A stretch of 64,000 nt of DNA from Micavibrio sp. UBA6147 (GTDB lineage Bacteria; Pseudomonadota; Alphaproteobacteria; Micavibrionales; UBA1664): the NCBI GenBank assembly GCA_002423185.1, contig DIUX01000001.1, forward strand, positions 221,030 through 285,029, given 5' to 3'. Below, one piece after another: positions 3,937 to 30,522 of this stretch. A program made the position numbers and the translations under genes. Within the stretch, counting starts at the first letter, position 1. Each line of letters begins with the position of its first letter. The notes below the pieces were generated by a model. The model had not been told where the DNA came from and searched no databases. It saw only the letters and a program-made list of their open reading frames with translations.

Positions 3937-3954
3937 AAATCCGTATCCCGTGTT

Positions 3955-4851: not shown

Positions 4852-5000
4852 CGCGTGTTATCCTAAAATCTTCATAAACTACAGTCAAACTCTACAAAAA
4901 ATGGGACTTCGATAAAGATATCCGTTTTTTATTCACAAGGTTGTTCACAGCCTTATACACAGATTTTCAATGGGTTGCGAGGCTAAATATGCTGCAAGGC

Positions 5001-5057
5001 TTTTATAAAATGCGGGCGGGCGGCTTCCTAAAATGAGGGAATGCCGTCCACCCGCAT
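5001..5057 (-). terminator. GC-rich hairpin plus T-run immediately after dnaK (terminator or attenuator between dnaK and the J-domain genes)
   Basis: Plus-strand arms ATGCGGGCGGGCGGC (5010-5024) and GCCGTCCACCCGCAT (5043-5057) pair at 13 of 15 positions. On the minus strand the hairpin is followed by TTTTATAAAA. Confidence 0.55.
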
Positions 5058-5063
5058 GGGGGA

Positions 5064-6998
5064 TTATTTGCCTTTGTCTTGGTCGTCGACTTCGGTGAAT
5101 TCGGCGTCAACGACATCAGGGTCGGCTTTGCTGTCGCCTTTATCTGAAGACGGCGCAGCATCCGCGGGCGCTCCAGCGGCTTCTTCTTGTTCCTTGCGGT
5201 ACGCAAGTTCGCCGAGCTTCATGGACGCCTTCATCAAAACATCGGTTTTTGCCTTGAGGTCGTCCGTGTCGGGGCTTTCTTGCTCCAGCAAGGATTTGAC
5301 ATCGTTTAAGGCCGTGTCGATCTCGCCGCGCTCCTCGGCACCGAGCTTGTCGCCGAATTCGGAAATGGATTTTTCCGTCGCGTTGACAAGGGATTCGGCT
5401 TGGTTGCGGGCTTCAACCGCGGCGCGGCGCTTTTTGTCGCTCTCGGCATTGACTTCGGCATCCTTGACCATTTTTTCGATCTCGGAATCGTCAAGCCCGC
5501 CAGAGGCTTGAATGACGATTTGCTGCTCTTTGTTTGTCGCTTTGTCCTTGGCGGACACGTTGACAATACCGTTCGCATCAATGTCGAATGTTACCTCGAT
5601 CTGAGGAATGCCGCGCGGTGCGGGGGGGATTCCGGTCAGGTCGAATTGGCCGAGCAATTTATTGTCCGCCGCCATTTCGCGCTCGCCTTGCGATACACGG
5701 ATGGTGACGGCATTTTGGCTGTCTTCAGCGGTGGAGAAAACCTGCGTTTTCTTGGTCGGGATGGTGGTGTTGCGTTCAATCAAACGGGTGAACACACCGC
5801 CCAAGGTTTCGATGCCGAGTGACAAGGGGGTCACGTCGAGCAACAAAACATCCTTCACATCGCCTTGCAAGACGCCGCCTTGAATCGCCGCGCCATTGGC
5901 AACGACTTCATCGGGGTTGACGCCTTTGTGCGGCTCTTTGCCAAAGAAGTCTTTGACGGTTTGGATGATTTTCGGCATACGGGTCATCCCGCCGACCAGC
6001 AAGACTTCGTCAATGTCGCTGGCCTTCAGACCGGCGTCTTTGAGCGCCGCTTTACACGGATCAATCGTGCGCTTGACGAGGTCTTCAACAAGGCTTTCGA
6101 GTTTTGCGCGGGTGAGTTTAAGCGTCAAGTGTTTCGCACCCGAAGCATCCGCCGCGATAAAGGGCTGGTTGATTTCGGTTTGCGTGGTGCTGGACAGCTC
6201 GATTTTGGCTTTTTCCGCCGCGTCTTTCAGGCGTTGCAACGCCATTTTGTCGTTGCGAAGCTCAATGCCTGTTTCCTTTTTGAACTCATCGGCAAGGTAA
6301 TCAATGATGCGCGAGTCAAAATCTTCCCCGCCAAGGAACGTGTCGCCATTGGTGGATTTCACTTCGAACACACCGTCACCGATCTCAAGGATGGACACGT
6401 CGAACGTGCCGCCGCCGAGGTCATAAACCGCAATCACGCCGGAGGCTTTTTTATCAAGCCCGTAGGCGAGTGCGGCCGCGGTTGGTTCGTTGATGATCCG
6501 CAGCACTTCAAGACCGGCGATTTTACCGGCGTCTTTGGTGGCTTGGCGCTGGGAGTCATTGAAATAGGCGGGGACGGTAATCACGGCCTTGTCCACGGTT
6601 TCACCGAGGTAGCTCTCCGCCGTTTCTTTCATTTTCTTGAGAACCATCGCGCTGATCTGGCTCGGCGCGAATTTTTCGTCATTCACCGTGACCCAAGCAT
6701 CGCCGTTATCCGCCTTTGAAATGGTAAAGGGGGATTTGGAGGCCATGTCTTTGACGGCCTTGTCCGTAAACGGACGACCGATCAGGCGCTTAATGCCGTA
6801 CAGGGTGTTTTCAGGGTTTGTGACGGCCTGACGCTTCGCCGGTTGACCGACAAGACGCTCACCGTCATTGGTGAAGGCAATCATAGAGGGGGTGGTGCGT
6901 GCGCCCTCGGCGTTTTCGATCACGCGGGGTTTGTCGCCTTCCATAACGGCAACACAGGAATTGGTCGTTCCAAGGTCGATACCTATTACTTTACTCAT
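5064..6998 (-). CDS. dnaK: Molecular chaperone DnaK (Hsp70)
   Basis: [18 protein letters not shown]..., [13 protein letters not shown], and a full Hsp70 nucleotide-binding and substrate-binding domain over 644 aa with an acidic C-terminal tail. AAGGAG Shine-Dalgarno sequence upstream. Confidence 0.98.
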
Positions 6999-7314
6999 CT
7001 TTAATCTCCTTTCAGTGGCAAATCAGATGATGGTGCAGCCCAAAATGGCACTGCGGTTTTTAATGAACAGTCGATTCCCAAGCGGTCAAGACAGCATAAG
7101 GAAACAAGCAATAGACCTATCGCATATTCCCCGCTCCGTCAATATCGCGAAGGGGTAAAGATTACGCTGTGATATGCTTTCGCATGTCCTTGAATACGGT
7201 ATGTATCCTTTGGCTATCGTCCGCTTATTTGACCGATTTTGCGAAGCCCTCATCAAAAAAGCAACCCCGCGGATCGTCATCCAGCCTTCGATGTCAACAT
7301 AACCTTTAGATAAG

Positions 7315-7342
7315 AATATATTCCTTTACCCGCAATTGTCAA
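7315..7342 (-). promoter_or_regulatory. Candidate sigma70-like promoter facing dnaK; the -35 lies inside an 8-bp-arm palindrome
   Basis: The minus strand reads TTGACA-N16-TATATT. The -35 is part of the palindrome TTGTCAAA-catt-TTTGACAA (7336-7355). This would give a ~310-nt leader, which is long, so the call is weak. Confidence 0.3.
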
Positions 7343-7381
7343 ACATTTTTGACAAAGGACAAAGAAGGGGAGGCGTGAGCC

Positions 7382-7843
7382 CTATGACGGCAATTCGGCT
7401 TTCTCGGCCTTTAAGATGGCGCCGTCTACGCCAGTGATGACGATTTTCGTGCCGGCGAGCAAGTCTTGGCTGATCTCGATTTTCCATGTCGTGTCGTCAA
7501 CCTTGATTTTGCCGAACCCGTTTTCGGTCGGGGTATCGAGGGTGAAGGTACGCCCGACATAGGCTTCGCCGCGGCGGTTCAACATGGTGTCGTCCGTATG
7601 CATCGGCTGGCCTTTGCGCCATTGCCGCCACCCCAAAAGAGCGAAGATCGACAGGAAAGACCAGATAACAAGCTGCATCTGCGGGCCGAGGTCGACCGCC
7701 AATAAAATAATGCCGACAACAAACGCACCAACCCCGAACCACAGGATGATAAAGCCGGGAATAAAGACCTCCAGAATGAGGAACACGAGGCCGAACGCCC
7801 ACCAGTGCCAGAATTCTGCTTGCTCAAGCCAAGTTTCAATCAT
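7382..7843 (-). CDS. NfeD-family membrane protein (partner of the SPFH protein)
   Basis: Multiple N-terminal TM helices followed by a C-terminal soluble OB-like segment, GKIKVDDTTWKIEISQDLLAGTKIVITGVDGAILKAE. It lies directly downstream of an SPFH gene. Confidence 0.85.
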   Translation of the reverse strand: MIETWLEQAEFWHWWAFGLVFLILEVFIPGFIILWFGVGAFVVGIILLAVDLGPQMQLVIWSFLSIFALLGWRQWRKGQPMHTDDTMLNRRGEAYVGRTFTLDTPTENGFGKIKVDDTTWKIEISQDLLAGTKIVITGVDGAILKAEKAELPS

Positions 7844-7961
7844 GTTGAACGTCCTTTTCGGTTGTCGGTCTTGTCTATTCTATTGGTTTTAGTGAGGGTA
7901 GTAGGGCGTGTGCGGCAAGGCAGGGAATAGCCTATCCCGCGCCACACATACGCCACCTTGT

Positions 7962-8903
7962 TTATTTTTTCGCCTTGGATGCCGCTGCGGCGGCACCTTC
8001 GGTTTTGAAGGCTTCCTTGGCAATCTCGCCGATGCCGCCGATGGCGCCGATGACGCTGGAGGCCTCAAGCGGGATAAACAATGTTTTCTGGTTCGGAGAA
8101 TCAGCGAATTTGCCGAGGGCGCGGACATATTCTTGCGCCACGAAATAGTTGATCGCCTGAACATTGCCGCCGGCAATCGCATTGGACACGGCCTTTGTGG
8201 CTGCGGCTTCGGCGTCGGCAAGGCGTTCGCGGGCTTCGGCGTCGCGGAAGGCGGCTTCCTTGCGGCCTTCGGCCTCCAACACGGCGGCGCGTTTTTCGCC
8301 TTCGGCGCGGGCAATGGCGGCTTGACGCGCGCCTTCGGCCTCAAGGATCACAGCGCGTTTTTCCCGCTCGGCCTTCATCTGGCGTGCCATAGAGTCAACA
8401 AGGTCGCGCGGCGGGCTGATGTCTTTGATCTCGATACGGGTGACTTTGATGCCCCAAGGCGCGGTGGCATCGTCAACAATGCCGAGCAATTTGGCGTTGA
8501 TCTGATCCCGCTCGGACAACAACGAGTCCAAATCCATCGACCCCATCACCGTCCGGATGTTGGTCATGGTGAGGTTGAGGACGGAGCGTTCAAGCTCGCG
8601 CACCTGATAAGCGGCCTTGGCGGCGTCGAGGACTTGGTAGAACACAACCCCGTCAACCCGCACAACGGCGTTGTCCTTGGTGATGACGTCTTGCGAGGCC
8701 ACATCAAGGACGTTTTCCATCATGTTCATCTTGGCGCCGATGCGGTCGATGAAGGGGATGATGAAATGCAGGCCGGGGCGCAATGTCGTGGTGTATCGAC
8801 CAAAGCGTTCAACCGTGTATTCCTGTCCCTGTGACACGGCTTTGACGCCGTTGAAAATGATGACAAATGCGAAAACGACAATAGCGCCGACAAGAATATC
8901 CAT
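7962..8903 (-). CDS. SPFH/band-7 (stomatin/QmcA-like) protein
   Basis: N-terminal TM helix, then SQGQEYTVERFGRYTTTLRPGLHFIIPFIDRI...VITKDNAVVRVDGVVFYQV, followed by an Ala/Glu/Arg-rich coiled coil (AEGARQAAIARAEGEKRAAVLEAEGRKEAA). This is typical of the SPFH family. Confidence 0.9.
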   Translation of the reverse strand: MDILVGAIVVFAFVIIFNGVKAVSQGQEYTVERFGRYTTTLRPGLHFIIPFIDRIGAKMNMMENVLDVASQDVITKDNAVVRVDGVVFYQVLDAAKAAYQVRELERSVLNLTMTNIRTVMGSMDLDSLLSERDQINAKLLGIVDDATAPWGIKVTRIEIKDISPPRDLVDSMARQMKAEREKRAVILEAEGARQAAIARAEGEKRAAVLEAEGRKEAAFRDAEARERLADAEAAATKAVSNAIAGGNVQAINYFVAQEYVRALGKFADSPNQKTLFIPLEASSVIGAIGGIGEIAKEAFKTEGAAAAASKAKK

Positions 8904-9046
8904 AAGGTTGCATCCCTTTTAACGATTAATTTCCACATTAAAATAGCAAGTTTATGAATGGATGGAAAGGGGGCGCATCACACCAAAGGCGTAAATGCTG
9001 TATGAAACGGCACAAAGATGGGGATTCATAGTAAGGGAATTAAGTA

Positions 9047-9985
9047 TTAATCGCGATCATACCGACTGCTGCGGCTTTTTTTCGGGCGTCTGCCGCTGAC
9101 TTGTCCGGCGGTGGCAAGCCCAGCCCCCGCAAGGGAAAGGCCGAGCCAGCCAAGCGCGCCGTATGTCCAGATGTCTTTATAGGTTTCAAACATGCGATGG
9201 CCGAAATTATCAACCTCGACAACTTGATACACCTCGCCGCGTCCTGCGCCATAGTTTTCAGGCGTGATGGCGGCGGCGGCCTGTTGCCACAGGGTTTGTT
9301 GGGCGGCGAGAGTAGGGGCAATCGCGTCCCCCGTGAGGCGGTTGATCGTTCCGCGGCGGGAGTCACGGTAAATCTCGCCGTCTTGCTCAAGATAGGGCAT
9401 GGAAATTCCGCCATAGCTGAAGGTCGCGGGCGCGAACTCGGCGGCTGGAATATTGGGGTGCTGTTCCATCATCGCAAGGGTTTTGGCGTATGTGTCGGCA
9501 ACTTCGGCGGCATATATTTGCGCCAAAACGGGGTTTTCAATCAAATCCCAGCGATGCACGGTGTCGTGGTCACCGTCTTTATCAAGCCGGTAATTAGGAG
9601 GGGTTGTTTGCACGCGGTAGACTTCGTAAGAGCCATTATGCTGGATGAGGGCAATACGGGATTCCAGTTCCTGCGACACGATATACCCTGCGCTTTGGCT
9701 GAAATTCGTGCTGAGAGTCGGGTCAACCTGAACGCTATCGGGGTCAAGCACTGCTGAGGTAATCCCCGCAACGCCGCAAACAGCCACGTTTCCAAGAACG
9801 CCCACCAATAAGCCACCTATGACGAAGGCGCTTTCAAGGTCGTTAATTCCCAATGTGGTGCGGCTGATGGCTTCCTTTGCAAAAATGCCCATCGCGCTTT
9901 TGCCCTCAGGCGTGCGGCCAAGCGCACCGGCCACGCGGCCGCGGACGGTCTTGTATTGCGGTTTGTCGAGGGGGCTGTCTGCCAT
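9047..9985 (-). CDS. Two-TM envelope protein, paralogue family member P1 (function unknown)
   Basis: The start is set at MADSPLDKPQYK by homology with the paralogues. TM1 is FVIGGLLVGVLGNVAVCGVAGI. Conserved blocks are YIVSQELESRIALIQHNGSYEVYRV, WDLIENPVLAQIYA and LWQQAAAAITPENYG. TM2 is ALGWLGLSLAGAGLATAG, followed by a basic tail. It is closest to P7. Confidence 0.8.
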   Translation of the reverse strand: MADSPLDKPQYKTVRGRVAGALGRTPEGKSAMGIFAKEAISRTTLGINDLESAFVIGGLLVGVLGNVAVCGVAGITSAVLDPDSVQVDPTLSTNFSQSAGYIVSQELESRIALIQHNGSYEVYRVQTTPPNYRLDKDGDHDTVHRWDLIENPVLAQIYAAEVADTYAKTLAMMEQHPNIPAAEFAPATFSYGGISMPYLEQDGEIYRDSRRGTINRLTGDAIAPTLAAQQTLWQQAAAAITPENYGAGRGEVYQVVEVDNFGHRMFETYKDIWTYGALGWLGLSLAGAGLATAGQVSGRRPKKSRSSRYDRD

Positions 9986-10041
9986 ATCGTGCCTGTATAA
10001 GCTTTCTTTCATTTATTCGGGGAGTCGATACGCATCCATTG

Positions 10042-10071
10042 AAAAAAGGCGGTTTTTTGGTGCACCGCCTT
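10042..10071 (-). terminator. Rho-independent terminator after the small J-domain gene
   Basis: Stem AAGGCGGT (10046-10053) / ACCGCCTT (10064-10071) with a 10-nt loop. On the minus strand the hairpin is followed by TTTTTT (plus-strand A-run, 10042-10047). Confidence 0.6.
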
Positions 10072-10086
10072 TATCGTTTTTGAGTC

Positions 10087-10506
10087 TTACTTCGGCCTGA
10101 AGGCTGCGAACGGATCGCGTTTTTTGAAGGCCATGGTCGGCTTTGCATCGGGCTTTTGACCGACTTTGCCGAGTCCTTGCTCGAACGTCTCAGTGAAGGA
10201 CGGGGCGTCACGGAACGAATTGGTTGCGCCGCTTGTGCTGCCTGGCTTTTGACCGGCTGCGGCTTGCTCGAGACCCGCTTTGCCGTATTGGTCGTAAATA
10301 TTGCGTTTTACAGGGTCTTGCAGGACTTCCCACGCAGCATTGATTTGCGCCATTTTCTTTGCGGCTTCGGCTTTTTCTGCGTCAGTTTTGTCGTGCTGCT
10401 GATCAGGGTGAGATTTCATCGCAAGTTTGCGATATTTTTTCTTGATGCTGTCGGCGTCTTCGCCTTTTTGTGCGCCAAGGGCATCATAATATTCTGTATC
10501 AGACAT
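10087..10506 (-). CDS. Small J-domain protein (139 aa) embedded in the paralogue array
   Basis: The N-terminal J domain is YYDALGAQKGEDADSIKKKYRKLAMKSHPDQQHD...AAWEVLQDPVKRNIYDQYG, with HPD present. It is followed by ~60 residues of Gly/Ser/Pro-rich sequence ending FKKRDPFAAFRPK. There is no zinc finger and no DnaJ C-terminal domains. Confidence 0.85.
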   Translation of the reverse strand: MSDTEYYDALGAQKGEDADSIKKKYRKLAMKSHPDQQHDKTDAEKAEAAKKMAQINAAWEVLQDPVKRNIYDQYGKAGLEQAAAGQKPGSTSGATNSFRDAPSFTETFEQGLGKVGQKPDAKPTMAFKKRDPFAAFRPK

Positions 10507-10642
10507 TTTTAATCCTACTCCCTTTGAAAATCGCCATTTGTTCTGATGTCTATTAATTACGGAAAATAAATAGTTATGTCAAGAAAAAATATAGTTTTTT
10601 AGTATGCAATAATTGCTTTTTTGTGAGCCTTGAATGAGCAAG

Positions 10643-11560
10643 CTATCGCGGTGTATTTTTCTTATCGCGCCGCCGCCGCACCGCACTTGCGCCTGTTTGC
10701 CCCAAGGCCAGAGCCCCGCCGCCGACCAACAGCGCCATCCAGCCAAGCATGTAATTGGAGCTGTAGTTATCAAAGCTGCGCGATAGGAGATCAAAATCTT
10801 TTTCATGCGCCGTTACTATGGGCGTCGTGCCAAGGCCATAGGTGTCGCTCGTGATTTGCGTTGCGGCCTGCCGCCACAGGGCGATGCCTTCTTGATAGTA
10901 AGTATATGTTTCCACAGGGTTCATCTCAAGCGGCACCGTCCGCCCGAAGCGCTGGATTTTGGTCGGCGTCAAATCGGCCGCTCCTTCGGGGCTTTGAATT
11001 CTGTACGCCACACTAAGGTCGGTTGAAACATAAGCGGGTGGGAAATTGTCGTTCAAAAAATTCTGTTCTTTTGCCCGCATGTCGTTTTCAAGATTGCTGA
11101 CGATCGAGGTTGCCAGACGTGCCGCAAGAGCGGGGTCATCAACGAATGTCCATCTTTCGTTGCTGTGGTCGATCATGTAAAACTGATACTGACCGTTTTG
11201 CACGACCAGCGCGTATTGCTGGCCGTTTTGTTCGAGAATGGATAGGCCATCGGACACTTGGCCTTGGCTGTCTTGGGCAATCACCGGCCTTTGGGTGTAA
11301 AGGCTCCGGTCGGCGGCGGGGTCTATATCCGTGATGAAGGCATAGCCAAAACTGCCCGTTGCGGCGAGAAAGACAAGCGCAGAATTCATATTAATAAATC
11401 CTTGCATGCCGCTTGTCCGGCTGTCCTTGCCGCGCAGGGTTGCATTGCGCCCCCAATGACCGAAAAATTCGCCAATCGGTTCGCCGACAGCCTTCGCAGC
11501 CTTTGAAAACTTGGCTTTCGGCGTGTGAAATTCAGGTTTGTCGGTGTGTTTGTCGGCCAT
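10643..11560 (-). CDS. Two-TM envelope protein, paralogue family member P2
   Basis: MADKHTDKPEFHT...; TM1 MNSALVFLAATGSFGYAFI; WTFVDDPALAARLA; LWRQAATQITSDTYG; TM2 MLGWMALLVGGGALALG; tail RRRRDKKNTPR. Confidence 0.8.
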   Translation of the reverse strand: MADKHTDKPEFHTPKAKFSKAAKAVGEPIGEFFGHWGRNATLRGKDSRTSGMQGFINMNSALVFLAATGSFGYAFITDIDPAADRSLYTQRPVIAQDSQGQVSDGLSILEQNGQQYALVVQNGQYQFYMIDHSNERWTFVDDPALAARLATSIVSNLENDMRAKEQNFLNDNFPPAYVSTDLSVAYRIQSPEGAADLTPTKIQRFGRTVPLEMNPVETYTYYQEGIALWRQAATQITSDTYGLGTTPIVTAHEKDFDLLSRSFDNYSSNYMLGWMALLVGGGALALGQTGASAVRRRRDKKNTPR

Positions 11561-11581
11561 TAAGAATTCTCACATTACGGG

Positions 11582-12445
11582 CTATGGGCGGTGTGTAGGG
11601 TCTTTGCGCCGTCTTGACACTTGTTGTGCCGTGCCGCCGATGGACAAAACCGTGGCAAGCCCCAACAGCCCGAGCCCGAGCCATTCACCGCCGGTTTTAT
11701 AAACGGTACCGACATTGCTCCAATAGCTGTAATCCGACGTGTATTCCAACAGGCCTGTTTGCGGCACGCCATAATTTTGGGGGGTGATGCCTTCTGCGGC
11801 GGATTGCCAAAAATCGCGGCTGCGCGTGAAATAGGCCGCCATTGTTTCGTTTTCGCGCTTGCTGCTGGTTAATTGACCACCCTCGCGGGCGATGACATCG
11901 TCTTGCGCGAATGGCACGGAAATATGGGTGGTATAATAAGTGCGGGGTAGGGGATTACCGTCGGCTTCAGGCAATGTTTCCTGCGCCAGTGAGGCATTAT
12001 ACGCCTCAACCGCCAATCGTGCATATTGGCGGGCTTGTTCGGGGGATTGAATCAATGTCCAATCGCCGCCGTTGGGGCCGCCGGAGCCGATGGTGTAGAC
12101 CTCAAACCGCCCGTCTTCACCGTGGATCAGGCCGAAATAAACGCCCTCAACCTTCGTTATCGCATAGCCGTTAATCAGGTTGAATTTCCCCGCGAGCTGG
12201 GTTTGCGCCGGCGGGTCAAGGTCGATTATTCCGCCGCCGATCAAGGATACGGGGACGAGTGCCACCGCCGAAAGGCCGGCAACGAAGACCATATTCCCGA
12301 AATCCTTGCCGCATGTAATATTGTTAATAAACTCGCCCGCGAAAACGGAGAGGGCGCCGCGCCCGTTTTTGTCTTCGCCGATTGTACGGTTGAGTTTTGC
12401 CGAAATCGTGTGGTTTTCGGGGTAATCCTGCGGTGATTCTGCCAT
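11582..12445 (-). CDS. Two-TM envelope protein, paralogue family member P3
   Basis: MAESPQDYPENHT...; KFNLINGYAITKVEGVYFGLIHGEDGRFEVYTI; WTLIQSPEQARQYA; FWQSAAEGITPQNYG; TM2 EWLGLGLLGLATVLSIGG; tail RRRKDPTHRP. Confidence 0.8.
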   Translation of the reverse strand: MAESPQDYPENHTISAKLNRTIGEDKNGRGALSVFAGEFINNITCGKDFGNMVFVAGLSAVALVPVSLIGGGIIDLDPPAQTQLAGKFNLINGYAITKVEGVYFGLIHGEDGRFEVYTIGSGGPNGGDWTLIQSPEQARQYARLAVEAYNASLAQETLPEADGNPLPRTYYTTHISVPFAQDDVIAREGGQLTSSKRENETMAAYFTRSRDFWQSAAEGITPQNYGVPQTGLLEYTSDYSYWSNVGTVYKTGGEWLGLGLLGLATVLSIGGTAQQVSRRRKDPTHRP

Positions 12446-12484
12446 GCTGTCCTCTTGGTTAATTCTGTCTTTTGTCTAAATTAA

Positions 12485-13375
12485 TTAGGGTTTGAAACCG
12501 CTGACGCGCCGCCGTGTTCGCGCGATTCCGCCAAGTCCGGCGAGCAAGGCCCATCCGGCAAGCCCGCCGCCCAACGCGGCCGAGCCGCCCTCGGTTACCT
12601 GACCCCAAAAATAATAATCATCGTTTAACTGTAACGGCTCGGCAGGGCCGTATGCGGCGGTGGCGGTAAGGCTGTCGATGGCCGTAGACCATAGCGCGGC
12701 AGTTTGTTCGGTATAGGATGTGAATTGTGACGGCGGAAGGTCAACCGGCACGATATCCATATCGACATAGACGGAAGTATCGTCAATTGTACCCGCGTTA
12801 TCATCACTTACATTGCGATACGCTACCGACATTTGCGGTGCGTAATAGGCACCAATTCCATATTGGGTTGTGCCGTCTTCGTTTGTTTTTATGTGGCTTT
12901 GTTCCGCAACGCTGGTCAGCAGGTAGTCGCGTACCATGGTGGCGTAGGATTTGGCTTGGTCGGGGTCGGATACCAAGCGCCATTCATCGAGCAAATCGCT
13001 GGTGGCGTTTGTCACCAGATAAACGCCAAAGCGGTCTTCACCGTTTGTTCTTTCACGGATCAGGGCGATTTTTTCCCCTTGAACCTCGATCACGGAGTAG
13101 CCGTTAATCAGGTTGAATTTGCCGGTGACGTTCCCATTCGCGGGTATGTTCAAATCCGTTAATCCGGCGTAGCCAATGCCGCCCACAATTGTTGCCGCAG
13201 CCAGCAAAGCGCCGCGCCCGAAAAATGTTTCGCCGTCACTGCCGACAAAGCTTGATGTGGCTTCGCTGAAGAATATCCCAAGGCCGGAACGTCCGTTGCG
13301 GTCGCGCCCGAAGACACGGTCAAACCGCGCGGAGAATGTTCTTTGGCTGGGGTGGTCTTGATTACGGTCTGCCAT
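12485..13375 (-). CDS. Two-TM envelope protein, paralogue family member P4
   Basis: The start is set at MADRNQDHPSQRT. The ORF-track extension would overlap P5. Blocks: KFNLINGYSVIEVQGEKIALIRERTNGEDRFGVYLV; WRLVSDPDQAKSYA; LWSTAIDSLTATAAYG; TM2 GGGLAGWALLAGLGG; tail RTRRR. Confidence 0.8.
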   Translation of the reverse strand: MADRNQDHPSQRTFSARFDRVFGRDRNGRSGLGIFFSEATSSFVGSDGETFFGRGALLAAATIVGGIGYAGLTDLNIPANGNVTGKFNLINGYSVIEVQGEKIALIRERTNGEDRFGVYLVTNATSDLLDEWRLVSDPDQAKSYATMVRDYLLTSVAEQSHIKTNEDGTTQYGIGAYYAPQMSVAYRNVSDDNAGTIDDTSVYVDMDIVPVDLPPSQFTSYTEQTAALWSTAIDSLTATAAYGPAEPLQLNDDYYFWGQVTEGGSAALGGGLAGWALLAGLGGIARTRRRVSGFKP

Positions 13376-13379
13376 GGTT

Positions 13380-14234
13380 CTATCGTCCGTTTTTGGTTGA
13401 TGTGTTACGCCCCGCACGGCGGCGCAGGCCGGAAATGCCGGCTCCTGCCGCGCCGAGGCCAAGCCAAGCGGCAAAGGTCACCATCGCGGCATCGCCGATA
13501 AGGTCAAAGGCGGATTGTGTGCCGCTGTCGTCCGGCGCGACATAGCGCGTGACACGGTCGGCGGCGGGGCCATAGGTTTCGGGCGTCATCTGCGCCGCTG
13601 TGCTTTGCCAAAAACTCTGTGTTTGCTGGTACAGGGTGGTGATTTGAGAGGCGCTCTTGTCTGTAACCTCGGTGCATCCCGAATAATGGCGGATTGTTGC
13701 GTTGCTCGGGGTTAACATCGGATTTTCGATGGTGGAGCACGCCATGAAGTCTGAGGAGTAACGGCTGTCCGCATTCAGGTTAAATCCCGCGATCTGGCGT
13801 TCGTATCGGGCGCTGACTTCCTCAACAATCTGGCGGGCGAGGGCGTAATCACGCACGATTTCAATGCGGCGGCGCTCGTCATTCCATTGGTACAGCTCGG
13901 TGCGTCCTTCATCGCGGATCAACATGAAATGTGTTTCGGTATGCTTGGTAAAGCTGTAGGTGCGGTTCATGAACCCCTTGCCGGAAATGTCATAATCCGT
14001 ACCGGCGTTGGTTATGCCGCCCACCGGCTCGTCTTGAAACATGTATAATCCGCCGCCAATGATGCCTGCGCTGCCCGTTGCCAATGTTGCGGCAAGCGCT
14101 ATACCGCCGACCCCCTTGCCAAAACTCAGCGTTTTGAAATAGGCGTGCAGGGCGTTTTCGGCCGTATCAATTGTTCGCACAGCCTTGGCGGACAGGCTGT
14201 TGAATTCGGGGGTGTCGCGCCGGTTGTCTGCCAT
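13380..14234 (-). CDS. Two-TM envelope protein, paralogue family member P5
   Basis: The start is set at MADNRRDTPEFNS, 2 nt after the P6 stop. Blocks: FMLIRDEGRTELYQW; two Cys in CSTIENPMLTPSNATIRHYSGC; FWQSTAAQMTPETYGP; TM2 MVTFAAWLGLGAAGAG; tail RRRAGR. Confidence 0.8.
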   Translation of the reverse strand: MADNRRDTPEFNSLSAKAVRTIDTAENALHAYFKTLSFGKGVGGIALAATLATGSAGIIGGGLYMFQDEPVGGITNAGTDYDISGKGFMNRTYSFTKHTETHFMLIRDEGRTELYQWNDERRRIEIVRDYALARQIVEEVSARYERQIAGFNLNADSRYSSDFMACSTIENPMLTPSNATIRHYSGCTEVTDKSASQITTLYQQTQSFWQSTAAQMTPETYGPAADRVTRYVAPDDSGTQSAFDLIGDAAMVTFAAWLGLGAAGAGISGLRRRAGRNTSTKNGR

Positions 14235-14236
14235 GT

Positions 14237-15070
14237 CTAGAGCCTTTTTGTCGGGGCTTGTCTGGCGCGGCGGCGCATTCCCGCCACACCCGCACCAATA
14301 CCGGCAAACCCAGCCCATCCAGCAAGGCCGCCCAACGCAAAGCCCGTGACGTATTCAAGGATGGATGCGTCGGTTTCGGGACGTACTACGTTCGGCACGT
14401 CGCCTGCGGGGCCGTAATTATCGGCGGTCATGGATTCAAGGGCGCCGTTCCAAAATGTTGCGGCGCGTTGGTAATGGGCGCGTGCGGAGCTTCCGTTGAC
14501 TTGAACCATTGGGCACGACCCTTCGTAACGCACGGTTTCGCCGTCAACCATCACGGGGTCGTAGATCGTATCGCATTGGTACATTTTGATCTTGAACGAA
14601 TCCGTCCGGTCAAAATCGAACGTGTTGAGGGTGTTTTGAGTCAAAGCCGCCATTTCGGAGATGATCTGGCGGGCGATGGCGGGGTCTTCGATCAATTCAT
14701 TGCGATTGCGCGAACGCACCCATTGATATAATTCGTATCGGCCTTCGTCGCGCAGCAAAAGATAGCCGACATCGCCCATGCTCTCGTAATTTTGGTAGGC
14801 ATAAGCGCGGTTCAAAAGCCCGTGACCCGACACGTCAAAATCGGCGGGCGGAAGGGGGGTGCCCGGAACCGTCACCAAAAAAGTGCCAAGCCCCAAAACC
14901 GTAGAGGCAGCGCCGATAATCGCGCCTCTTTTTACAAAGCCTCCAACCCCCTCATGCCCTGATAAGTGGTTGAAATAATCCCGTCCGGCATTTTGCGCAC
15001 CGTCAATGGCGCGTACGGTGCGGGCGGCGGCGGATCGGTATTCCGGTGAATCGTGCTTGTGGTCGGCCAT
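14237..15070 (-). CDS. Two-TM envelope protein, paralogue family member P6
   Basis: The start is set at MADHKHDSPEYRS (ATG; the ORF-track start is a TTG three codons upstream). Blocks: YLLLRDEGRYELYQW; LIEDPAIARQII; CDTIYDPVMVDGETVRYEGSC; FWNGALESMTADNYGP; TM2 GGLAGWAGFAGIGAG; tail RRRARQ. Confidence 0.8.
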   Translation of the reverse strand: MADHKHDSPEYRSAAARTVRAIDGAQNAGRDYFNHLSGHEGVGGFVKRGAIIGAASTVLGLGTFLVTVPGTPLPPADFDVSGHGLLNRAYAYQNYESMGDVGYLLLRDEGRYELYQWVRSRNRNELIEDPAIARQIISEMAALTQNTLNTFDFDRTDSFKIKMYQCDTIYDPVMVDGETVRYEGSCPMVQVNGSSARAHYQRAATFWNGALESMTADNYGPAGDVPNVVRPETDASILEYVTGFALGGLAGWAGFAGIGAGVAGMRRRARQAPTKRL

Positions 15071-15127
15071 AAGGTTCAATCCTGTCTTACTGTTTTAAAT
15101 CCATATTCATGCCGTAACCCCGTTATC

Positions 15128-16027
15128 TCAGGTCGGGCGCGGTTTTGAAATGCGGCGGCGTGTGGCACTGCTCGCCCCCGCTGCGGCGCCGAGTATCATT
15201 AATCCGCCGACCGCCCCTATGGCATAGGGGAGGACGCTCTCGGCTACGCCGATAATGCTGTGAACATCGTCGTTCAGACGGACAAGGTCATCGGGGCGCG
15301 TTTCAAACCCGTAATGACCGGCTGCAATACGGTCGGCGGCATCTTGCCACAACGCGCCGGAGCGCTCGATATAGGAGCGCAGCTCAAAAGCCTGAATCGG
15401 GGTGCTGGGTGTATGGATGCTCTCGCGGAAGATTTGCCCGTCATCTTCATACGCCTTTGTGATCTGGCTGTATTGAATGCGGTTTGGCGCGGCAAATTCC
15501 GCCATGCGGGTTTGGCCTTGGTCAAGCGCTGTGAGCGCGGTGGCATAGCTCGCGACCATACGGTTGGCGATATACAGAGCTTGATCGCGGTCTTCGACCA
15601 TGTCCCATAAATCAACTGAAATGTTGCTTTCACGGCTGGAGGATAAGAAGCGGTTATCGCTCGTGCGGGGGATGATGCGGTAAACGCGTGTGTCATCGCC
15701 GTTTCGCACGACCGCAAAACGATTGTCAATGTCTTGGCTGACCAGATAGCTTTGCTCGGTTGAAACTGGCTGATTTATTGATGTGTCCATGCCGACGTCT
15801 TCATGGGCGACGCCGCCGTAAATCAGGCTGCCGCCCACGGCAATACTGCCCAGTACTGTCCATTTAAACGCCGCGCCGAGGACGGTTTCGCCGAGGGCTT
15901 TTTTCGCAAACTCGCCTGCCCAAACGCGTGCGCCGTTTTGTCCGGTGCGTTGGTCTTCACCAAAGGCGCGCTTCATCCGGTTTGACGGAGTGCGATAGGA
16001 GGGTGTGTCTTTTTCGTTGTCGGCCAT
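15128..16027 (-). CDS. Two-TM envelope protein, paralogue family member P7
   Basis: The start is set at MADNEKDTPSYRT. The ORF-track extension covers a promoter-like element. Blocks: YLVSQDIDNRFAVVRNGDDTRVYRI; WDMVEDRDQALYIA; AEFAAP; LWQDAADRIAAGHYG; TM2 AIGAVGGLMILGAAAG; tail RRRISKPRPT. Confidence 0.8.
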   Translation of the reverse strand: MADNEKDTPSYRTPSNRMKRAFGEDQRTGQNGARVWAGEFAKKALGETVLGAAFKWTVLGSIAVGGSLIYGGVAHEDVGMDTSINQPVSTEQSYLVSQDIDNRFAVVRNGDDTRVYRIIPRTSDNRFLSSSRESNISVDLWDMVEDRDQALYIANRMVASYATALTALDQGQTRMAEFAAPNRIQYSQITKAYEDDGQIFRESIHTPSTPIQAFELRSYIERSGALWQDAADRIAAGHYGFETRPDDLVRLNDDVHSIIGVAESVLPYAIGAVGGLMILGAAAGASSATRRRISKPRPT

Positions 16028-16069
16028 TTTTCGTCCATTAAAGGGAATGCTATCAGGCTCAATGTAATT

Positions 16070-16099
16070 TACATAAACAATGGGCGCTGTTTTTGTCAA
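16070..16099 (-). promoter_or_regulatory. Candidate sigma70-like promoter for P7 and the downstream paralogues
   Basis: The minus strand reads TTGACA-N18-TATGTA about 40 nt upstream of the P7 ATG, inside the 178-nt gap between P8 and P7. Only the -35 is consensus. Confidence 0.3.
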
Positions 16100-16205
16100 C
16101 TTTTATTTTATGAAAAACAATGTGTGAGCCGCCTCGCCTTGAGCGAGAGCCGAAGGGCAAAATAACCGCAGAGTCTGCGCATTAAGGAAGACCTAATAAT
16201 GGGAT

Positions 16206-17030
16206 CTATCGCGGGGTTTTTGAGTCGCGTCTTCGTCTGTTGGCGTTGGTGTAGGACACGCCCGCCATACCGGCTGTGCCGGCCATCCATAACCCAAGCA
16301 ATGCAAAGGATAGTTCCGCCGATTCATCGAAAAAATAGCCGATCTGGGTTTGCTGCTGCAAGGTCGTAATCTCACCACTTTGCGGGCCATAGCGTGTGGG
16401 ATTGGCTTCAAGCGCCGCGAATGCTTCATCCCACAGCGCGAGTTCCTGCGCCTGATGTTCTTCGAATTGGTGTCCGGCAACGCGGGTATGGGGGCAGCCG
16501 TCCTTATATCGTTCGATTCCGCCGCCATAGGCGAACGGCACTGTCACATACTCGCATGTGGCCGTATTGGTGAATTGCTCCTCAATCGGGTTAATAGAGG
16601 CGATATTGGCGCGAAAATTATCAATGCTGGCTTGAAGTCTGTCGCGGTTTTGCTGGATGATTTCTTTGGCTCTTACGGGGTCGCTGACCAATAGTAAACG
16701 TGTATTATCGGTGGCGTGGCGTTCATAAACACGCGGGATGCCGCCTTGCTCAAGCAATAGATACCATTGCTCCCTGCCGTTTTCGTCCTCGAATCCTGTA
16801 TAGGAATAATCTTTATGCTGGTCGAAAATGCCGGTGAGCAAGTTTTCATCGGCTTGCGGTCTTGGCGTTTCAAGCAGGGCAGGCGTTGAAAACCCTAAAC
16901 CGATCAAAAGCGGCAGTGCCACCATCGGTGCCGCAAAGCGCCAATCATTATGTCCGGCCGTTACTGCGCGCTTAAAGTGTTTGCCATAGCTGTCGCGTTT
17001 TGAGGGGTCATCATGCGGTTTATCGGCCAT
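16206..17030 (-). CDS. Two-TM envelope protein, paralogue family member P8
   Basis: The start is set at MADKPHDDPSKRD. Blocks: TM1 FAAPMVALPLLIGLGF; WYLLLEQGGIPRVYE; LLLVSDPVRAKEII; CEYVTVPFAYGGGIERYKDGC; LWDEAFAALEANPTRYGP; TM2 LLGLWMAGTAGMAG; tail RRRRDSKTPR. Confidence 0.8.
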   Translation of the reverse strand: MADKPHDDPSKRDSYGKHFKRAVTAGHNDWRFAAPMVALPLLIGLGFSTPALLETPRPQADENLLTGIFDQHKDYSYTGFEDENGREQWYLLLEQGGIPRVYERHATDNTRLLLVSDPVRAKEIIQQNRDRLQASIDNFRANIASINPIEEQFTNTATCEYVTVPFAYGGGIERYKDGCPHTRVAGHQFEEHQAQELALWDEAFAALEANPTRYGPQSGEITTLQQQTQIGYFFDESAELSFALLGLWMAGTAGMAGVSYTNANRRRRDSKTPR

Positions 17031-17130
17031 ATCCCTGCGTCCTTTTTTCATATATCGCTATAGCTTCTGATAGCGAAGCACTATGGTAAATGCAAGCGAA
17101 AAGATTCTGGAAACGGCGTGTTTGGGAGCG

Positions 17131-17210: not shown

Positions 17211-17231
17211 CCTCAAGCCTCAAGCCTCAAG
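17211..17231. repeat. Heptanucleotide tandem repeat x3 overlapping the uvrC stop codon
   Basis: CCTCAAG CCTCAAG CCTCAAG on the plus strand. The uvrC TGA (17229-17227) lies in the third unit. Confidence 0.6.
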
Positions 17232-19101
17232 CGTCATGAAAGTAATCATAGATGCTCTGGGCAAAGGATTCTGAAATCCCTTCGACCTTGAGCAAATCGG
17301 CAATCCCCGCATCTTCGACCGCCTTGGCGGAGCCGAAATGGACGAGCAGGGCTTTCTTGCGTTTGGGGCCAATCCCGGGGATTTGGTCAAGCGTGGATTT
17401 TGTGATGCCTTTGGCGCGGCGCTGGCGGTGGGCGCCGATCGCGAAGCGGTGCGATTCATCGCGCAGGCGTTGCAAATAAAACAAGGACGGGTCATTGATG
17501 GGAAGGCGGAAAGATTCCCGTCCGTTCATGTGAAATTCTTCGCGCCCTGCATTGCGGTCGGGGCCTTTGGATATCGCAACAACGGTGAGGTCATCCAAAA
17601 TACCGAGCTCCTCCAAAACGCCGCTCACGGCCGAGAGTTGCCCCTTGCCGCCGTCAATCAATAATAAGTCAGGCCATTCCGGCATGCCCGCGTTGCTACT
17701 GTCGCTGTTGCCCTTATTGTCTTTCAAGGCGCGGGAAAAACGCCGCATCATCACTTCGCGCATCATATCAAAATCGTCTTGCGCGTTGGCTTGCTTGATG
17801 TTGAATTTGCGGTATTGGTTTTTGATGAATCCGTCCGGCCCCGCCACCACCATCACGCCGGTCATGTTGGTGCCTGAGATATGGCTGTTGTCATAGATTT
17901 CAATGCGCTGGGGCGGGGTGTCCATGCCGAATAAATCGGCAATAGCGGACAGGGCGCTGGCTTGCTGGGCGTTTTCTTGTAAGTGCCGTTCCAGCGCAGC
18001 CTTGATATTGTTCTCCGCCCAATCGACAAGGCGTTTGCGGTCGCCGCGCAGGGGTGTTTTGATCGTGACTTTATAGCCCGATTTATGGCTCAAGGCTTCG
18101 GTCAACAACGCTTCTTCTGTCACAGGGGCATTGGTAATGACCTCCTTCGGAACCGGCTTGTCGGCATAAAACTGCGCCATAAACGCCCCCAAAATATCGC
18201 CCAGCGTGTCGTCTTTGTCGGCGCGGGGGAAATAGCTGCGGTTGCCATAGCTTTGCCCGCTGCGAAAGAAAAATACCTGTACGCATGTTTTGCCGCCAAG
18301 GGTCAGTCCCGCAATCACATCGGCATCAACAAGCGATGGAATACTGATGTCTTGGCGCATTTGAATGGTGGACAGCGCCCTGATCCGGTCGCGCAATGCG
18401 GCGGCTTTTTCAAATTCCATGGCATCGCTGGCCTGTTGCATTTCTTCGGCCATTTTGTCTTGGATTTGGCGGCTCTTGCCGCTCAGGTAGTCCTTCACAT
18501 CGCGCGTTTGGCGGGCGTAGTCTTGCTTTGACACAAGGTTGGTACACGGCGCGGTGCATCGTTTGATGTGGTATTGCAGGCAAGGGCGGGTGCGGTTGGC
18601 AAAGTAAGAGTCACTGCAATTGCGCACCATAAAAATCCGTTGCAGCATCGTCAACGTATGGTTCACTGCGCCAATCGATGCAAACGGCCCGAAATAATCG
18701 CCTTTGAGGGTTTTCGCGCCACGATGCTTGGTCAAACGCGGAAAATCATGGTCGCCCGTCAATAATATATAAGGAAACGACTTGTCGTCTTTGAGCAAGA
18801 TATTATAGCGCGGGCGGTGCTTTTTGATCAAATTGGCCTCAAGCAACAAGGCCTCGGCCTCGGTATGGGTTTCGACAAACTCCATCCGCAGGGTTTCACT
18901 CACCATCCGCATCAGGCGCGACGACAGGCGGTTGGGCTGCGTATACGAAAAAACCCGCCGCTTCAGGGCTTTGGCTTTGCCGACATACAATGTTTCATCG
19001 CCCTTGCCGACCATTTGGTACACGCCCGGCTTTTGACCCAGCTTCGCAGCATGAGCCTTAATCACGTCTATTCCGTCCTGAAGCGGGCGCATATCATGCA
19101 T
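17227..19101 (-). CDS. uvrC: Excinuclease ABC subunit C
   Basis: 624 aa with the N-terminal GIY-YIG module (PGVYQMVGKGDETLYVGKAKALKRRV), a UvrBC-interaction region, an RNase H-like endonuclease domain and a C-terminal (HhH)2 (LDQIPGIGPKRKKALLVHFGS). Confidence 0.95.
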   Translation of the reverse strand: MHDMRPLQDGIDVIKAHAAKLGQKPGVYQMVGKGDETLYVGKAKALKRRVFSYTQPNRLSSRLMRMVSETLRMEFVETHTEAEALLLEANLIKKHRPRYNILLKDDKSFPYILLTGDHDFPRLTKHRGAKTLKGDYFGPFASIGAVNHTLTMLQRIFMVRNCSDSYFANRTRPCLQYHIKRCTAPCTNLVSKQDYARQTRDVKDYLSGKSRQIQDKMAEEMQQASDAMEFEKAAALRDRIRALSTIQMRQDISIPSLVDADVIAGLTLGGKTCVQVFFFRSGQSYGNRSYFPRADKDDTLGDILGAFMAQFYADKPVPKEVITNAPVTEEALLTEALSHKSGYKVTIKTPLRGDRKRLVDWAENNIKAALERHLQENAQQASALSAIADLFGMDTPPQRIEIYDNSHISGTNMTGVMVVAGPDGFIKNQYRKFNIKQANAQDDFDMMREVMMRRFSRALKDNKGNSDSSNAGMPEWPDLLLIDGGKGQLSAVSGVLEELGILDDLTVVAISKGPDRNAGREEFHMNGRESFRLPINDPSLFYLQRLRDESHRFAIGAHRQRRAKGITKSTLDQIPGIGPKRKKALLVHFGSAKAVEDAGIADLLKVEGISESFAQSIYDYFHDA

Positions 19102-20371: not shown

Positions 20372-22054
20372 TTATTGCGCGGGCTGCACGGGCTGCGCTG
20401 GTGCGGGGGCTTGTCCGGCGGCGCCTGTGAGGGCGGACATGTCGGCGCCGTTTAACAAGATTTGACCGCTTTCCTTGAAGTCGAAGACATAAACATGGGC
20501 GATTTTGCCTGTTGTCGGGTCTTGTTGTTGTTGTCCCAACATTTGCATCATTCCAATGCCGCCGAGGGCTTGCTGGATCTGGCCGGCTTGTTCGGGTGTT
20601 GCGGTTTGTGCGTCCTGCGTCAAACGGCCGATAACTGCGTCTAAACCCTGTATCCGCAGATTAGCGGTTCCGACTACCATCAAAGGCGATACGGCGCTGG
20701 CGGTCAGGTTGGTATCAAGGTCGATTTGGTACAGGTCGGATGATTTCGCAGCATTTTTCAACTTGATCACCGTGCCGAGGCTGGTCATCAAGTTTTTCAT
20801 ATTTGGCATCTGGGCGTTCAGAATATCGGTGGTGGCTTGATTGCTGTCGACATTGCCTTCTGTGTTGATGATGTCAACACTGGCTTTGCCGAGGCTCCCC
20901 ATCATTTGTTTGTAGGGGAATTTTTCGAGCAAGAAACTCAAGGTGAACGTGTCGGGAATATAAATGGTGTAAAATTCCGTTTTGGGGGCGTCTTGCCCTG
21001 ATAAAGCGGCATTGTCACCAGCATCAATTCCGAGCAAAGAAATGCCGAACCCGAGCGTGGCGGAGGCTTCGGTCATGTCGGCAAGGCTGAAATCAAGGCC
21101 TAATTGCCCCATTTTCACCGTTTCGATTTGATCGTCTTGAGTGGGGCTTGGGAATTCGACTTCAATCCCCTTGACGCCGAAGGCGGTGTTTGAGCTGTCG
21201 CTGAAATCGGTCAGATAGTCAAACATCGCACTGCTCATCTTGCCGATTTGCTCTTTGGTTTGGTCATCGAGCGGAGCGCCGGAGGCAACGCTTTGGTCGA
21301 TTTTGCCGCTGACTTCCTGAATTTTCTCTTGGAAGTCTGAGAGCGAGCTGATCTTGAAGTTTTTCACATCGCCGGTCAAATAGGCTTGCGCAATGCTTCC
21401 TTTGACCTTTTCTTCGGGGATGTTGAAGGTGACGTTATCGGCGGTGACGCTGTACGGGCCGCTCCATAATTGTTCGCCGGTGACTTCGAAATCGTTGCGA
21501 AGTGTGACTTTGGGGGCTTGAAGAATTTGTGCGTTTTGGCTGTTGGACACCACGATATTTTCATACACACCATCCAGTTTGAGGAAGTTCATCGCGGCTT
21601 CAACCCAAATACCGGCCATGCGTTGTGACCCGATGGCGATTTCCGCGTCAAGTGAGCCGAGCTTGTCATACACCCGAATGGGGGTCGGTACGGCAACGGC
21701 GACTTTCCAATGGCCTTCCTGTGTTGAGGGGATAGCATTGACGGCAATCATGCCGATATCCATGCGCGACCCCGTTGCTTGCTTGATTTTGAGGTAAGGC
21801 AAAGTCACGGCGTAATAGGTGTTGGAGGGTTCGACCGTCAAATCGCCCGTCCATTCATAGGTGTCGCCGGCGAGTTTTTTTACATCGCTGTGCATTTTAA
21901 TGGTTTTTTGCAAATGGTCTTTAAGCTTCGCGGCACCATCCGGCGAAACCGTTTGTGCATAGGCCTGTGCCGCACTCAAAAAAGTGAAGGCAACAATAAA
22001 CAAGGCCGTAAAAATCCGCAAAGGCGCATAAAAGCGGGCGTTAACCAAAGTCAT
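20372..22054 (-). CDS. Secreted hypothetical protein (~560 aa)
   Basis: The signal-peptide-like N-terminus MTLVNARFYAPLRIFTALFIVAFTFLSAAQAYAQ follows a GGAAGAAG Shine-Dalgarno-like sequence. No catalytic motif was recognised. The C-terminus is Gln/Ala/Pro-rich. Confidence 0.65.
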   Translation of the reverse strand: MTLVNARFYAPLRIFTALFIVAFTFLSAAQAYAQTVSPDGAAKLKDHLQKTIKMHSDVKKLAGDTYEWTGDLTVEPSNTYYAVTLPYLKIKQATGSRMDIGMIAVNAIPSTQEGHWKVAVAVPTPIRVYDKLGSLDAEIAIGSQRMAGIWVEAAMNFLKLDGVYENIVVSNSQNAQILQAPKVTLRNDFEVTGEQLWSGPYSVTADNVTFNIPEEKVKGSIAQAYLTGDVKNFKISSLSDFQEKIQEVSGKIDQSVASGAPLDDQTKEQIGKMSSAMFDYLTDFSDSSNTAFGVKGIEVEFPSPTQDDQIETVKMGQLGLDFSLADMTEASATLGFGISLLGIDAGDNAALSGQDAPKTEFYTIYIPDTFTLSFLLEKFPYKQMMGSLGKASVDIINTEGNVDSNQATTDILNAQMPNMKNLMTSLGTVIKLKNAAKSSDLYQIDLDTNLTASAVSPLMVVGTANLRIQGLDAVIGRLTQDAQTATPEQAGQIQQALGGIGMMQMLGQQQQDPTTGKIAHVYVFDFKESGQILLNGADMSALTGAAGQAPAPAQPVQPAQ

Positions 22055-30502: not shown

Positions 30503-30522
30503 GGTATTTTTGTGGGGCTGAT

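Follow-up and report, generated by a model that had tools for sequence, protein, structure and literature searches.

An array of eight paralogues of an undescribed, putative inner-membrane protein family, with an embedded J-domain gene, in an alphaproteobacterium related to Micavibrio

Results

A tandem array of eight paralogous genes

The window analysed here is the whole 64,000-nucleotide (nt) stretch of contig DIUX01000001.1 of Micavibrio sp. UBA6147 (contig positions 221,030 to 285,029), and our subject is an array of eight minus-strand open reading frames (ORFs) of 274-312 amino acids (aa) that spans window positions 9047-17030. Named in transcription order, these are W1 (16206-17030, 274 aa), W2 (15128-16027, 299 aa), W3 (14237-15070, 277 aa), W4 (13380-14234, 284 aa), W5 (12485-13375, 296 aa), W6 (11582-12445, 287 aa), W7 (10643-11560, 305 aa) and W8 (9047-9985, 312 aa). 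A gene for a J-domain-only protein of 139 aa, J139, lies on the same strand between W7 and W8. The minus-strand order is uvrC, W1-W7, J139, a terminator, W8, SPFH, NfeD, dnaK, a second J-domain gene (J298), dnaJ and rpsD. Where the contigs extend that far, which is in the window and at two related loci, L004 and L100, described below, the array is bounded upstream by uvrC (17227-19101 in the window).

The eight proteins can be aligned from end to end with 19-29% identity to the first member, and nine alignment columns are invariant (M1, A2, D7, P9, Y102, A121, W200, Y214 and G215). BLASTP detects 20 of the 28 possible pairs, about 17 of them with E < 1e-3 when a database size of 1e8 is assumed, the strongest being W3/W4 (E 3e-50) and W5/W6 (E 4e-23). 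Each of the eight is identified as a member by ORF, alignment and predicted transmembrane (TM) helices. The paralogy is not a product of chance, because a profile built from the eight recovers 149 further full-length relatives. GGA-type ribosome-binding sites precede the start codons of the conserved N-terminal Met-Ala-Asp (MAD), and these starts match independent gene calls on public contigs. Spurious ORFs and chance similarity were rejected as an account of the array.

The gaps between consecutive genes from uvrC through W8, J139 included, are 196, 178, 57, 2, 4, 39, 21, 136 and 101 nt. Only 2-39 nt separate the neighbours from W3 to W7, with W4 starting 2 nt past W3 and W5 starting 4 nt past W4. 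No convincing terminators were found in the W1-W2, W7-J139 and W8-SPFH intergenic regions. DNA repeats in the array are short only and coincide with the segments encoding MAD..D.PE, NLINGY and LW..A..T..YG. This confinement to motif-coding segments shows that the copies are old, with no recent duplication or gene conversion, and a phase-variable or gene-conversion locus was rejected on the same grounds.

J139, its terminator and the chaperone neighbourhood

J139 (10087-10506, minus strand) has its J domain at residues 5-72 (PF00226, E 2.4e-19), with the HPD motif in 'KSHPDQ', followed by a Gly-rich linker and a C-terminus that carries the peptides LGKVGQ and KK.DPFAAF. It has neither the CXXCXGXG zinc finger nor the C-terminal substrate-binding domains of type I DnaJ, and its score against the NCBIfam DnaJ model is 88 bits against a cut-off of 338. 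Orthologues occupy the same position at L004, L095 and L100 (60%, 44% and 41% identity, respectively) and were seen solely in the clade formed by these loci and the window. Both C-terminal peptides are conserved in three of the four orthologues; the L100 protein lacks the DPFAAF tail.

The J139 gene is followed on the minus strand by an intrinsic-terminator-like hairpin at approximately 10042-10072, consisting of AAAGGCGGU, a 10-nt loop and ACCGCCUUU, then U6. By sequence and fold the stem is 9 bp and lies 15 nt past the J139 stop codon. The automatic terminator scan passed over this hairpin owing to its 10-nt loop. In L004, too, the J gene is followed by a GC hairpin of equivalent kind and T5.

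Directly downstream of W8, which always lies between the J gene and SPFH, the minus strand encodes an SPFH/Band_7 protein (7962-8903, 313 aa, PF01145), a membrane scaffold of stomatin/prohibitin type, and an NfeD protein (7382-7843, 153 aa, PF01957), the partner that SPFH proteins usually have. After this pair, about 2 kb past the array, comes a canonical dnaK-dnaJ operon with DnaK (5064-6998, minus strand, 644 aa, PF00012, E 1e-272) and a full-length type I DnaJ (2767-3936, minus strand, 389 aa) that has J, CXXCXGXG and DnaJ_C domains. Between dnaK and dnaJ sits J298 (3955-4851, minus strand), a low-complexity protein of 298 aa whose J domain covers residues 102-166 (PF00226, E 3e-18), giving three J-domain genes within 8 kb of one dnaK. 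J298 had no orthologue in 80 other alphaproteobacterial dnaK loci, and no member of the W family was found within 10 kb of dnaK in 80 GTDB dnaK loci.

A sequence-only reading of the window had proposed eight same-strand paralogues at these positions, gaps of 2-39 nt between several of them, and a 139-aa J-domain-only gene inside the array with a terminator behind it. All of this was borne out: the ORFs are present and align, the tight gaps are those of W3-W7, and the J gene has both its HPD motif and a constant position in four lineages.

One-to-one orthology of the paralogues at syntenic loci

Three further loci carry a related arrangement. L004, whose UvrC is 76% identical to that of the window, has nine paralogues in its main array and two more upstream; L100/L101 (UvrC 71% identical) has six paralogues, the J gene and then one more paralogue; and L095, on a short contig, has the J gene, a W8-type paralogue, Band_7 and NfeD. 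The series J, W8-type paralogue, Band_7 and NfeD, with HSP70 where the contig reaches it, is thus found in four lineages including the window, L004 showing only a cut Band_7-like gene. L100 is a complete J-containing locus in which synteny with the window extends over the whole neighbourhood of approximately 20 kb; for L004 and L095 it extends as far as their contigs do. Because the whole neighbourhood is syntenic, the conserved position of the J gene is no independent evidence of functional coupling.

Best-hit analysis indicated colinear one-to-one orthology between the window and both L004 and L100. W1 corresponds to L004_3 (51% identity) and L100_1 (37%), W2 to L004_4 (46%) with no counterpart in L100, and W3 to L004_5 and L004_6 (46-51%, duplicated there) and L100_2 (44%). 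W4 has an orthologue in L004 only (L004_7, 56%). W5 corresponds to L004_8 (47%) and L100_3 (48%), W6 to L004_9 (52%) and L100_4 (41%), and W7 to L004_10 (35%) and to L100_5 and L100_6 (30-35%, duplicated there). The orthologues of W8, L004_11 (53%), L095_1 (39%) and L100_7 (50%), each lie between J and Band_7.

Orthologues are therefore 30-56% identical and stand in the same order, whereas paralogues within a genome are 20-34% identical; over the same comparisons SPFH (L004, L095 and L100) is 78-89% and UvrC 71-77% identical. These identities imply that the paralogues are much older than the species splits, have been retained individually, and evolve faster than housekeeping genes. On this comparison the paralogues are ancient and order-conserved, and appear to be non-redundant.

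The host itself is assigned by similarity to the Alphaproteobacteria, its nearest DnaK and UvrC relatives in a GTDB scan being metagenome-assembled genomes (MAGs) of Micavibrio type. The window DnaK is 76-78% identical to DnaKs of Micavibrio-type and other alphaproteobacterial MAGs, and UvrC is approximately 58% identical to Micavibrio-type MAG proteins; those MAGs also have the divergent uvrC-pentapeptide gene pair of the window.

Architecture and predicted topology

All members have a common layout. A basic tail some 50 residues long, which opens with a conserved N-terminal peptide, leads into a first hydrophobic helix (TM1); then come an acidic domain of roughly 185 residues, a second, Gly/Ala-rich helix (TM2) and an RRR tail. 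The N-terminal peptide reads M-A-D-K/R-x-x-D-x-P-E/D and is followed in the N-tails by basic-hydrophobic stretches. Each protein has two hydrophobic helices by Kyte-Doolittle analysis (19-residue window, scores 1.2-2.3), TM1 beginning at residue 35-60 after the conserved polar and basic tail; in an AlphaFold model of W6, the protein chosen for modelling, helices span residues 49-74 and 237-278. The content of Gly, Ala and Ser is 38% in TM1 and 47% in TM2, and a small-xxx-small-xxx-small motif is present in each helix in approximately 63% of members. Near-invariant Arg, Trp and Tyr residues occur in the central domain.

Charge and cysteine statistics were calculated over 81 family members. Lys and Arg amount to 17 per 100 residues in the N-tail and 36 in the C-tail but only 7 in the middle domain, which has 16 Asp and Glu per 100 residues. 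This positive-inside bias fits a topology with both termini in the cytoplasm (N-in/C-in). The middle domain contains no cysteine in 60 proteins, one in a single protein and two in 20, a near-strictly even count, as expected from disulfide pairs in the periplasm. W1, W3 and W4 have exactly two cysteines each, all inside the domain (residues 159/179, 166/186 and 166/187, respectively). A disulfide is thus probably present in the periplasmic domain of one quarter of the members, and charge bias and paired cysteines together support an N-in/C-in inner-membrane hairpin with a periplasmic domain.

These results agree with what had been proposed for the eight proteins from sequence, namely two TM helices around a central domain, an N-in/C-in topology and three members with a cysteine pair. 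The finer motif assignments were roughly right. E(V/L)Y occurs in only four of the eight copies, its Tyr being invariant, and the Trp of W-x-L-V in five of the eight; the RRR tail holds in general and fails in W8, which ends in GRRPKK instead.

An undescribed family with a candidate new fold

The eight W proteins had no match in Pfam, NCBIfam or PADLOC. The lowest E-values obtained with these eight and with 81 family members were 0.004-0.1, each to a different, unrelated family and none recurring, and the family profile gave no match to PDB sequences (best E 1.7). Homologues carry only the name 'hypothetical protein' in their sources, and a literature search on Micavibrio and DnaJ turned up nothing relevant.

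The full-length AlphaFold model of W6 has a mean predicted local distance difference test score (pLDDT) of 79, rising above 90 in the middle domain, and a model of the domain alone reached a pLDDT of 90.1 and a predicted template-modelling score (pTM) of 0.88. The domain model is of alpha/beta type, with elements in the order four strands, long helix, four strands, long helix. Foldseek searches of this model against PDB and BFVD found no characterised family (best E 0.06, TM-score at most 0.26), and the full-length W6 model gave the same outcome. Matches to lipocalin, Bet v 1 and Mago nashi were dismissed as noise, sharing at most a general layout of sheet plus helices. Alignment of the two domain halves with hhalign detected no internal repeat and no similarity between them. 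The model therefore makes the periplasmic domain a candidate new fold. The sequence-only reading had not recognised the family, and we rate it as new: it is undescribed and falls outside all the sequence and structure libraries searched.

Distribution of the family

An exhaustive profile search of 1.84 billion representatives of clusters at 50% identity recovered 149 clusters with E <= 1e-3, 84 of them with E <= 1e-10. Nearly all 149 representatives are 250-350 aa long and matched over their full length, with no extra or fused domains. Of the full-length representatives, 139 in number, 128 begin with MA and 113 agree with MA-x4-D/H; close to the C-terminus, 132 of the 139 carry a cluster of basic residues (RRR itself in 91). 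The extreme N-terminus, that is the first ten residues, is the best-conserved feature of proteins that are otherwise often only about 15-20% identical.

The retrieved loci derive from SRA (Logan), ENA and JGI assemblies, and the family has so far been found only on contigs from one group of uncultured alphaproteobacteria. A scan of GTDB species representatives with the W5/W6 motif detected no member, nor did two metagenome scans of the JGI contig collection. Searches of plasmid and phage collections with tblastn gave no match, and a plasmid or phage origin was rejected.

We inspected seven other loci, up to 10 kb on either side where the contig allows, and found no called J-domain or Hsp70 gene around any of them (L005, L088, L090, L093, L096, L098 and L102). 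They carry one to six family members each: three near-identical copies with an AAA+ gene and genes for HAD hydrolases alongside (L005), four copies (L088/L089), five copies plus one with an extracytoplasmic function (ECF) sigma factor and a CpxP-like gene upstream (L090), one copy with MsrA nearby (L093), two copies with FtsH 3 kb away (L096), one copy (L098), and five copies beside chaperone-usher pilus genes (L102). Homologues in general are thus neither solely single-copy nor always apart from J-domain and Hsp70 genes, since multi-copy loci exist and four lineages show J linkage. A single sample series yielded L100, L005, L093, L098 and L102, all with a GC content of 45-47%; one organism may carry about 17 copies at these five loci. 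L096 (53% GC), with a source set identical to that of the window, may be part of the window's own genome.

Several features of these loci were recorded in passing. Upstream of a pentapeptide gene, L004 encodes two very divergent members (35-1798) of a subtype with the N-terminus 'MADKP.D...W..K.FG..AD', which also forms arrays or single copies in L005, L093, L098 and L102_4. Beside the single family member of L093 lie seven small tandem ORFs on the minus strand (2828-5582, 74-141 aa, no Pfam match), which may be another lineage-specific paralogue array. The region upstream of the L090 array (4483-9891) encodes the ECF sigma factor, a 107-aa protein, a Metal_resist (CpxP/Spy-like) protein and an EF-hand protein, neighbours that hint at an envelope-stress context; the array itself is interrupted by a 584-aa gene without a Pfam match.

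Other features of the window

A second paralogue array at 42422-60209 on the plus strand comprises six ORFs in tandem, each 687-986 aa long. Three of them were scanned and consist of FG-GAP_2 repeats (PF14312, E 1e-71 to 1e-92), and the products of this array are probably large secreted or surface proteins. Directly after tRNA-Met, at 29644-31572 on the plus strand, are a gene for DarT, a single-stranded DNA ADP-ribosyltransferase (PF14487, E 2e-24), and a DarG-like gene with a Macro domain. Low GC content (0.425) and a strong GC skew mark this stretch, which is probably an integrated DarTG toxin-antitoxin island. Two large ORFs of 572 aa (20372-22090, minus strand) and 504 aa (22261-23775, plus strand) have no Pfam match, and genes of similar size occupy the same relative positions in L100. 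A ClpP-family protease (27127-27924, plus strand, PF00574) also matches the NfeD1b N-terminal domain weakly; instead of a canonical ClpP, it may be an NfeD-like serine protease associated with the membrane.

Discussion

We tentatively favour, with confidence clearly below even, the reading that the array encodes hairpin proteins that are co-expressed, build an envelope assembly as its subunits and have a cytoplasmic docking peptide in common. The genes are tightly spaced and keep their order, and their products are probably made together. Through their small-residue TM helices the paralogues could pack into a mixed, hetero-oligomeric assembly, and with the conserved N-terminal peptide all of them would dock onto one and the same cytoplasmic partner. 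J139 may, at this locus alone, bring the neighbouring DnaK to the family proteins, and the downstream SPFH-NfeD pair may join in assembly or quality control. The J, DnaK and SPFH proteins are, on this proposal, a plausible locus-specific accessory and not a family-defining feature.

Several observations weigh against a shared assembly of this kind. The conserved gene order may reflect just limited divergence, with UvrC at 71-77% identity and the neighbourhood syntenic wherever contigs extend. Conservation is uniform along the protein (55% in the N-tail, 47% in the periplasmic domain) and marks no single functional surface. The topology is a prediction from hydropathy, charge and cysteine statistics. 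Its acidic, polar character sets the N-terminal peptide apart from typical DnaK-binding sites. Finally, the single-copy loci L093 and L098 and the near-identical, recent copies of L005 imply that the full paralogue set is not needed at every locus.

The strongest competitor, which we regard as unlikely, is that the proteins are independent periplasmic binding or sensor modules, one ligand each, that signal or are tethered through the shared peptide and do not co-assemble. This would accommodate periplasmic domains that are only 20-30% identical between paralogues yet are kept one-to-one across species, near-invariant Arg, Trp and Tyr residues that could make up a common binding site, the existence of single-copy loci, and the variety of settings, some of them near envelope-stress genes (ECF and CpxP-like in L090, FtsH in L096, MsrA in L093). 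However, the Foldseek search of PDB found no likeness to known sensor folds (PAS/Cache, 4HB and CHASE among them), about 150 representatives include no output domain or fusion, and no conserved signalling partner is encoded nearby. Slightly less likely again, in our judgement, is a specialised J-protein/DnaK pathway that has the tails as its dedicated clients or anchors and in which J139 delivers DnaK to them. This link was drawn in the sequence-only reading, and at the locus itself several features fit it: J139 is embedded on the same strand and with its terminator closes the W1-W7 unit, it keeps its position in the four lineages to which it is confined, its C-terminal peptides are retained in three of the four orthologues, and dnaK, J298 and dnaJ follow 2-6 kb downstream in a stretch rich in proteostasis genes, the SPFH-NfeD pair among them. 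The basic-hydrophobic stretches behind MAD would also suit J/DnaK clients. As a general rule the link is not supported, since around seven other family loci, over up to 10 kb per side where the contig allows, no J-domain or Hsp70 gene was called; in addition, synteny of the whole neighbourhood makes the co-location weak evidence, and the L100 J protein has no DPFAAF tail. Very doubtful is the most elaborate version, an undescribed envelope machine of up to eight or nine hairpin paralogues with a new periplasmic fold, assembled or turned over by a J-co-chaperone and DnaK acting through the N-terminal peptide and organised by SPFH-NfeD.

More doubtful still is an immunity-type role, in which the proteins would be periplasm-facing inhibitors of lytic effectors of self or competitors. 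The genes are tandem, divergent and periplasm-facing in their predicted products, the array evolves faster than housekeeping genes (35-56% identity against 76% for UvrC and 89% for SPFH), and the nearest DnaK and UvrC relatives belong to MAGs of the type of Micavibrio, which is a predator. Against such a role stands the orthology, strictly colinear and one-to-one across a long divergence; the locus has no genes for cognate toxins, no mobile elements, no sign of recent turnover and no PADLOC match, and an immunity role would leave the strongly conserved cytoplasmic N-terminal peptide unexplained. We give hardly any credence to C-terminal sorting by exosortase, rhombosortase or a similar enzyme, with TM2 and the Arg cluster cleavable and the mature protein released or re-anchored. 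A Gly-rich C-terminal helix followed by RRR does resemble the last two parts of such signals, and sub-threshold NCBIfam matches to the MYXO-CTERM and CoaP C-terminal models were obtained (E 0.02-0.09). The hidden Markov model scores, 14.4 and 12.4 bits, nonetheless fall far short of their respective cut-offs of 150 and 35, a conserved cytoplasmic tail of about 50 residues stands where a signal peptide would be, no signature motif directly precedes TM2, the chain continues for 5-15 residues past the Arg cluster, and no sortase-type gene is among the neighbours examined in the window. With no signal peptide, no signature motif and scores far below the cut-offs, sortase substrates were rejected.

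If the finding of a new family, possibly with a new fold, holds up, it would add unannotated membrane proteins, probably with a new periplasmic fold, to the known envelope biology of a little-studied group of uncultured alphaproteobacteria related to Micavibrio. The conserved first ten residues point to a short linear docking or targeting signal undescribed in bacteria. The presence of a J-only co-chaperone, an SPFH-NfeD pair and dnaK by one array would offer an entry point to Hsp70 handling of inner-membrane proteins. An ordinary alternative is equally possible, that this is one more lineage-specific envelope family of narrow significance; many such families exist.

Parts of the locus resemble several known systems. 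Like PEP-CTERM, GlyGly-CTERM and MYXO-CTERM signals, the family proteins have a Gly-rich helix at the C-terminus with an Arg cluster behind it, but they differ from these in having no signature motif or signal peptide and in the residues that continue past the cluster. J139 resembles class III/C J-only co-chaperones, which direct DnaK to a particular site and include the membrane-bound DjlA, in its intact J domain with HPD and its short specific tail, and in being encoded beside candidate clients and near dnaK; unlike DjlA it has no TM segment, and its match to the NCBIfam DjlA model has an E-value of 1.8e-5 (cut-off 162 bits). The Band_7 and NfeD genes directly downstream of the last paralogue resemble SPFH-NfeD operons of QmcA-YbbJ type, L004 showing only its cut Band_7-like gene; operons of this kind have a link to the quality control of membrane proteins. 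The W family, however, belongs to neither SPFH nor NfeD, and the other family loci have no such pair.

For the proposed assembly the closest parallels are PilN/PilO and GspL/GspM of type IV pili and type II secretion, which are likewise paralogous, tandem-encoded inner-membrane proteins of modest size, and the Mce/MlaD proteins. PilN has a short conserved N-terminal cytoplasmic peptide that docks onto PilM, a protein of actin/Hsp70 fold, and PilN/PilO also have a small alpha/beta periplasmic domain, ferredoxin-like in proteins of this type, which in their case pairs with that of the paralogue. The W family differs in having two TM helices instead of one, a domain with no fold match in PDB, where structures of PilN/PilO type have been solved, no Pfam match, and no pilM, pilP, pilQ or other pil or gsp neighbours. 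With Mce/MlaD the array shares the tandem, order-conserved arrangement of diverged, membrane-anchored periplasmic paralogues; Mce operons encode six co-expressed paralogues that form one heterohexamer. Here the differences are the lack of an MlaD/Mce domain in Pfam, the two TM helices, and the lack of YrbE/MlaE permease or ATPase genes in the locus. We tested the family for membership of both groups and found that it belongs to neither, so that PilN/PilM, for a docking peptide, and Mce, for an ordered set of paralogues, serve by analogy only as our working models of what such an array might build.

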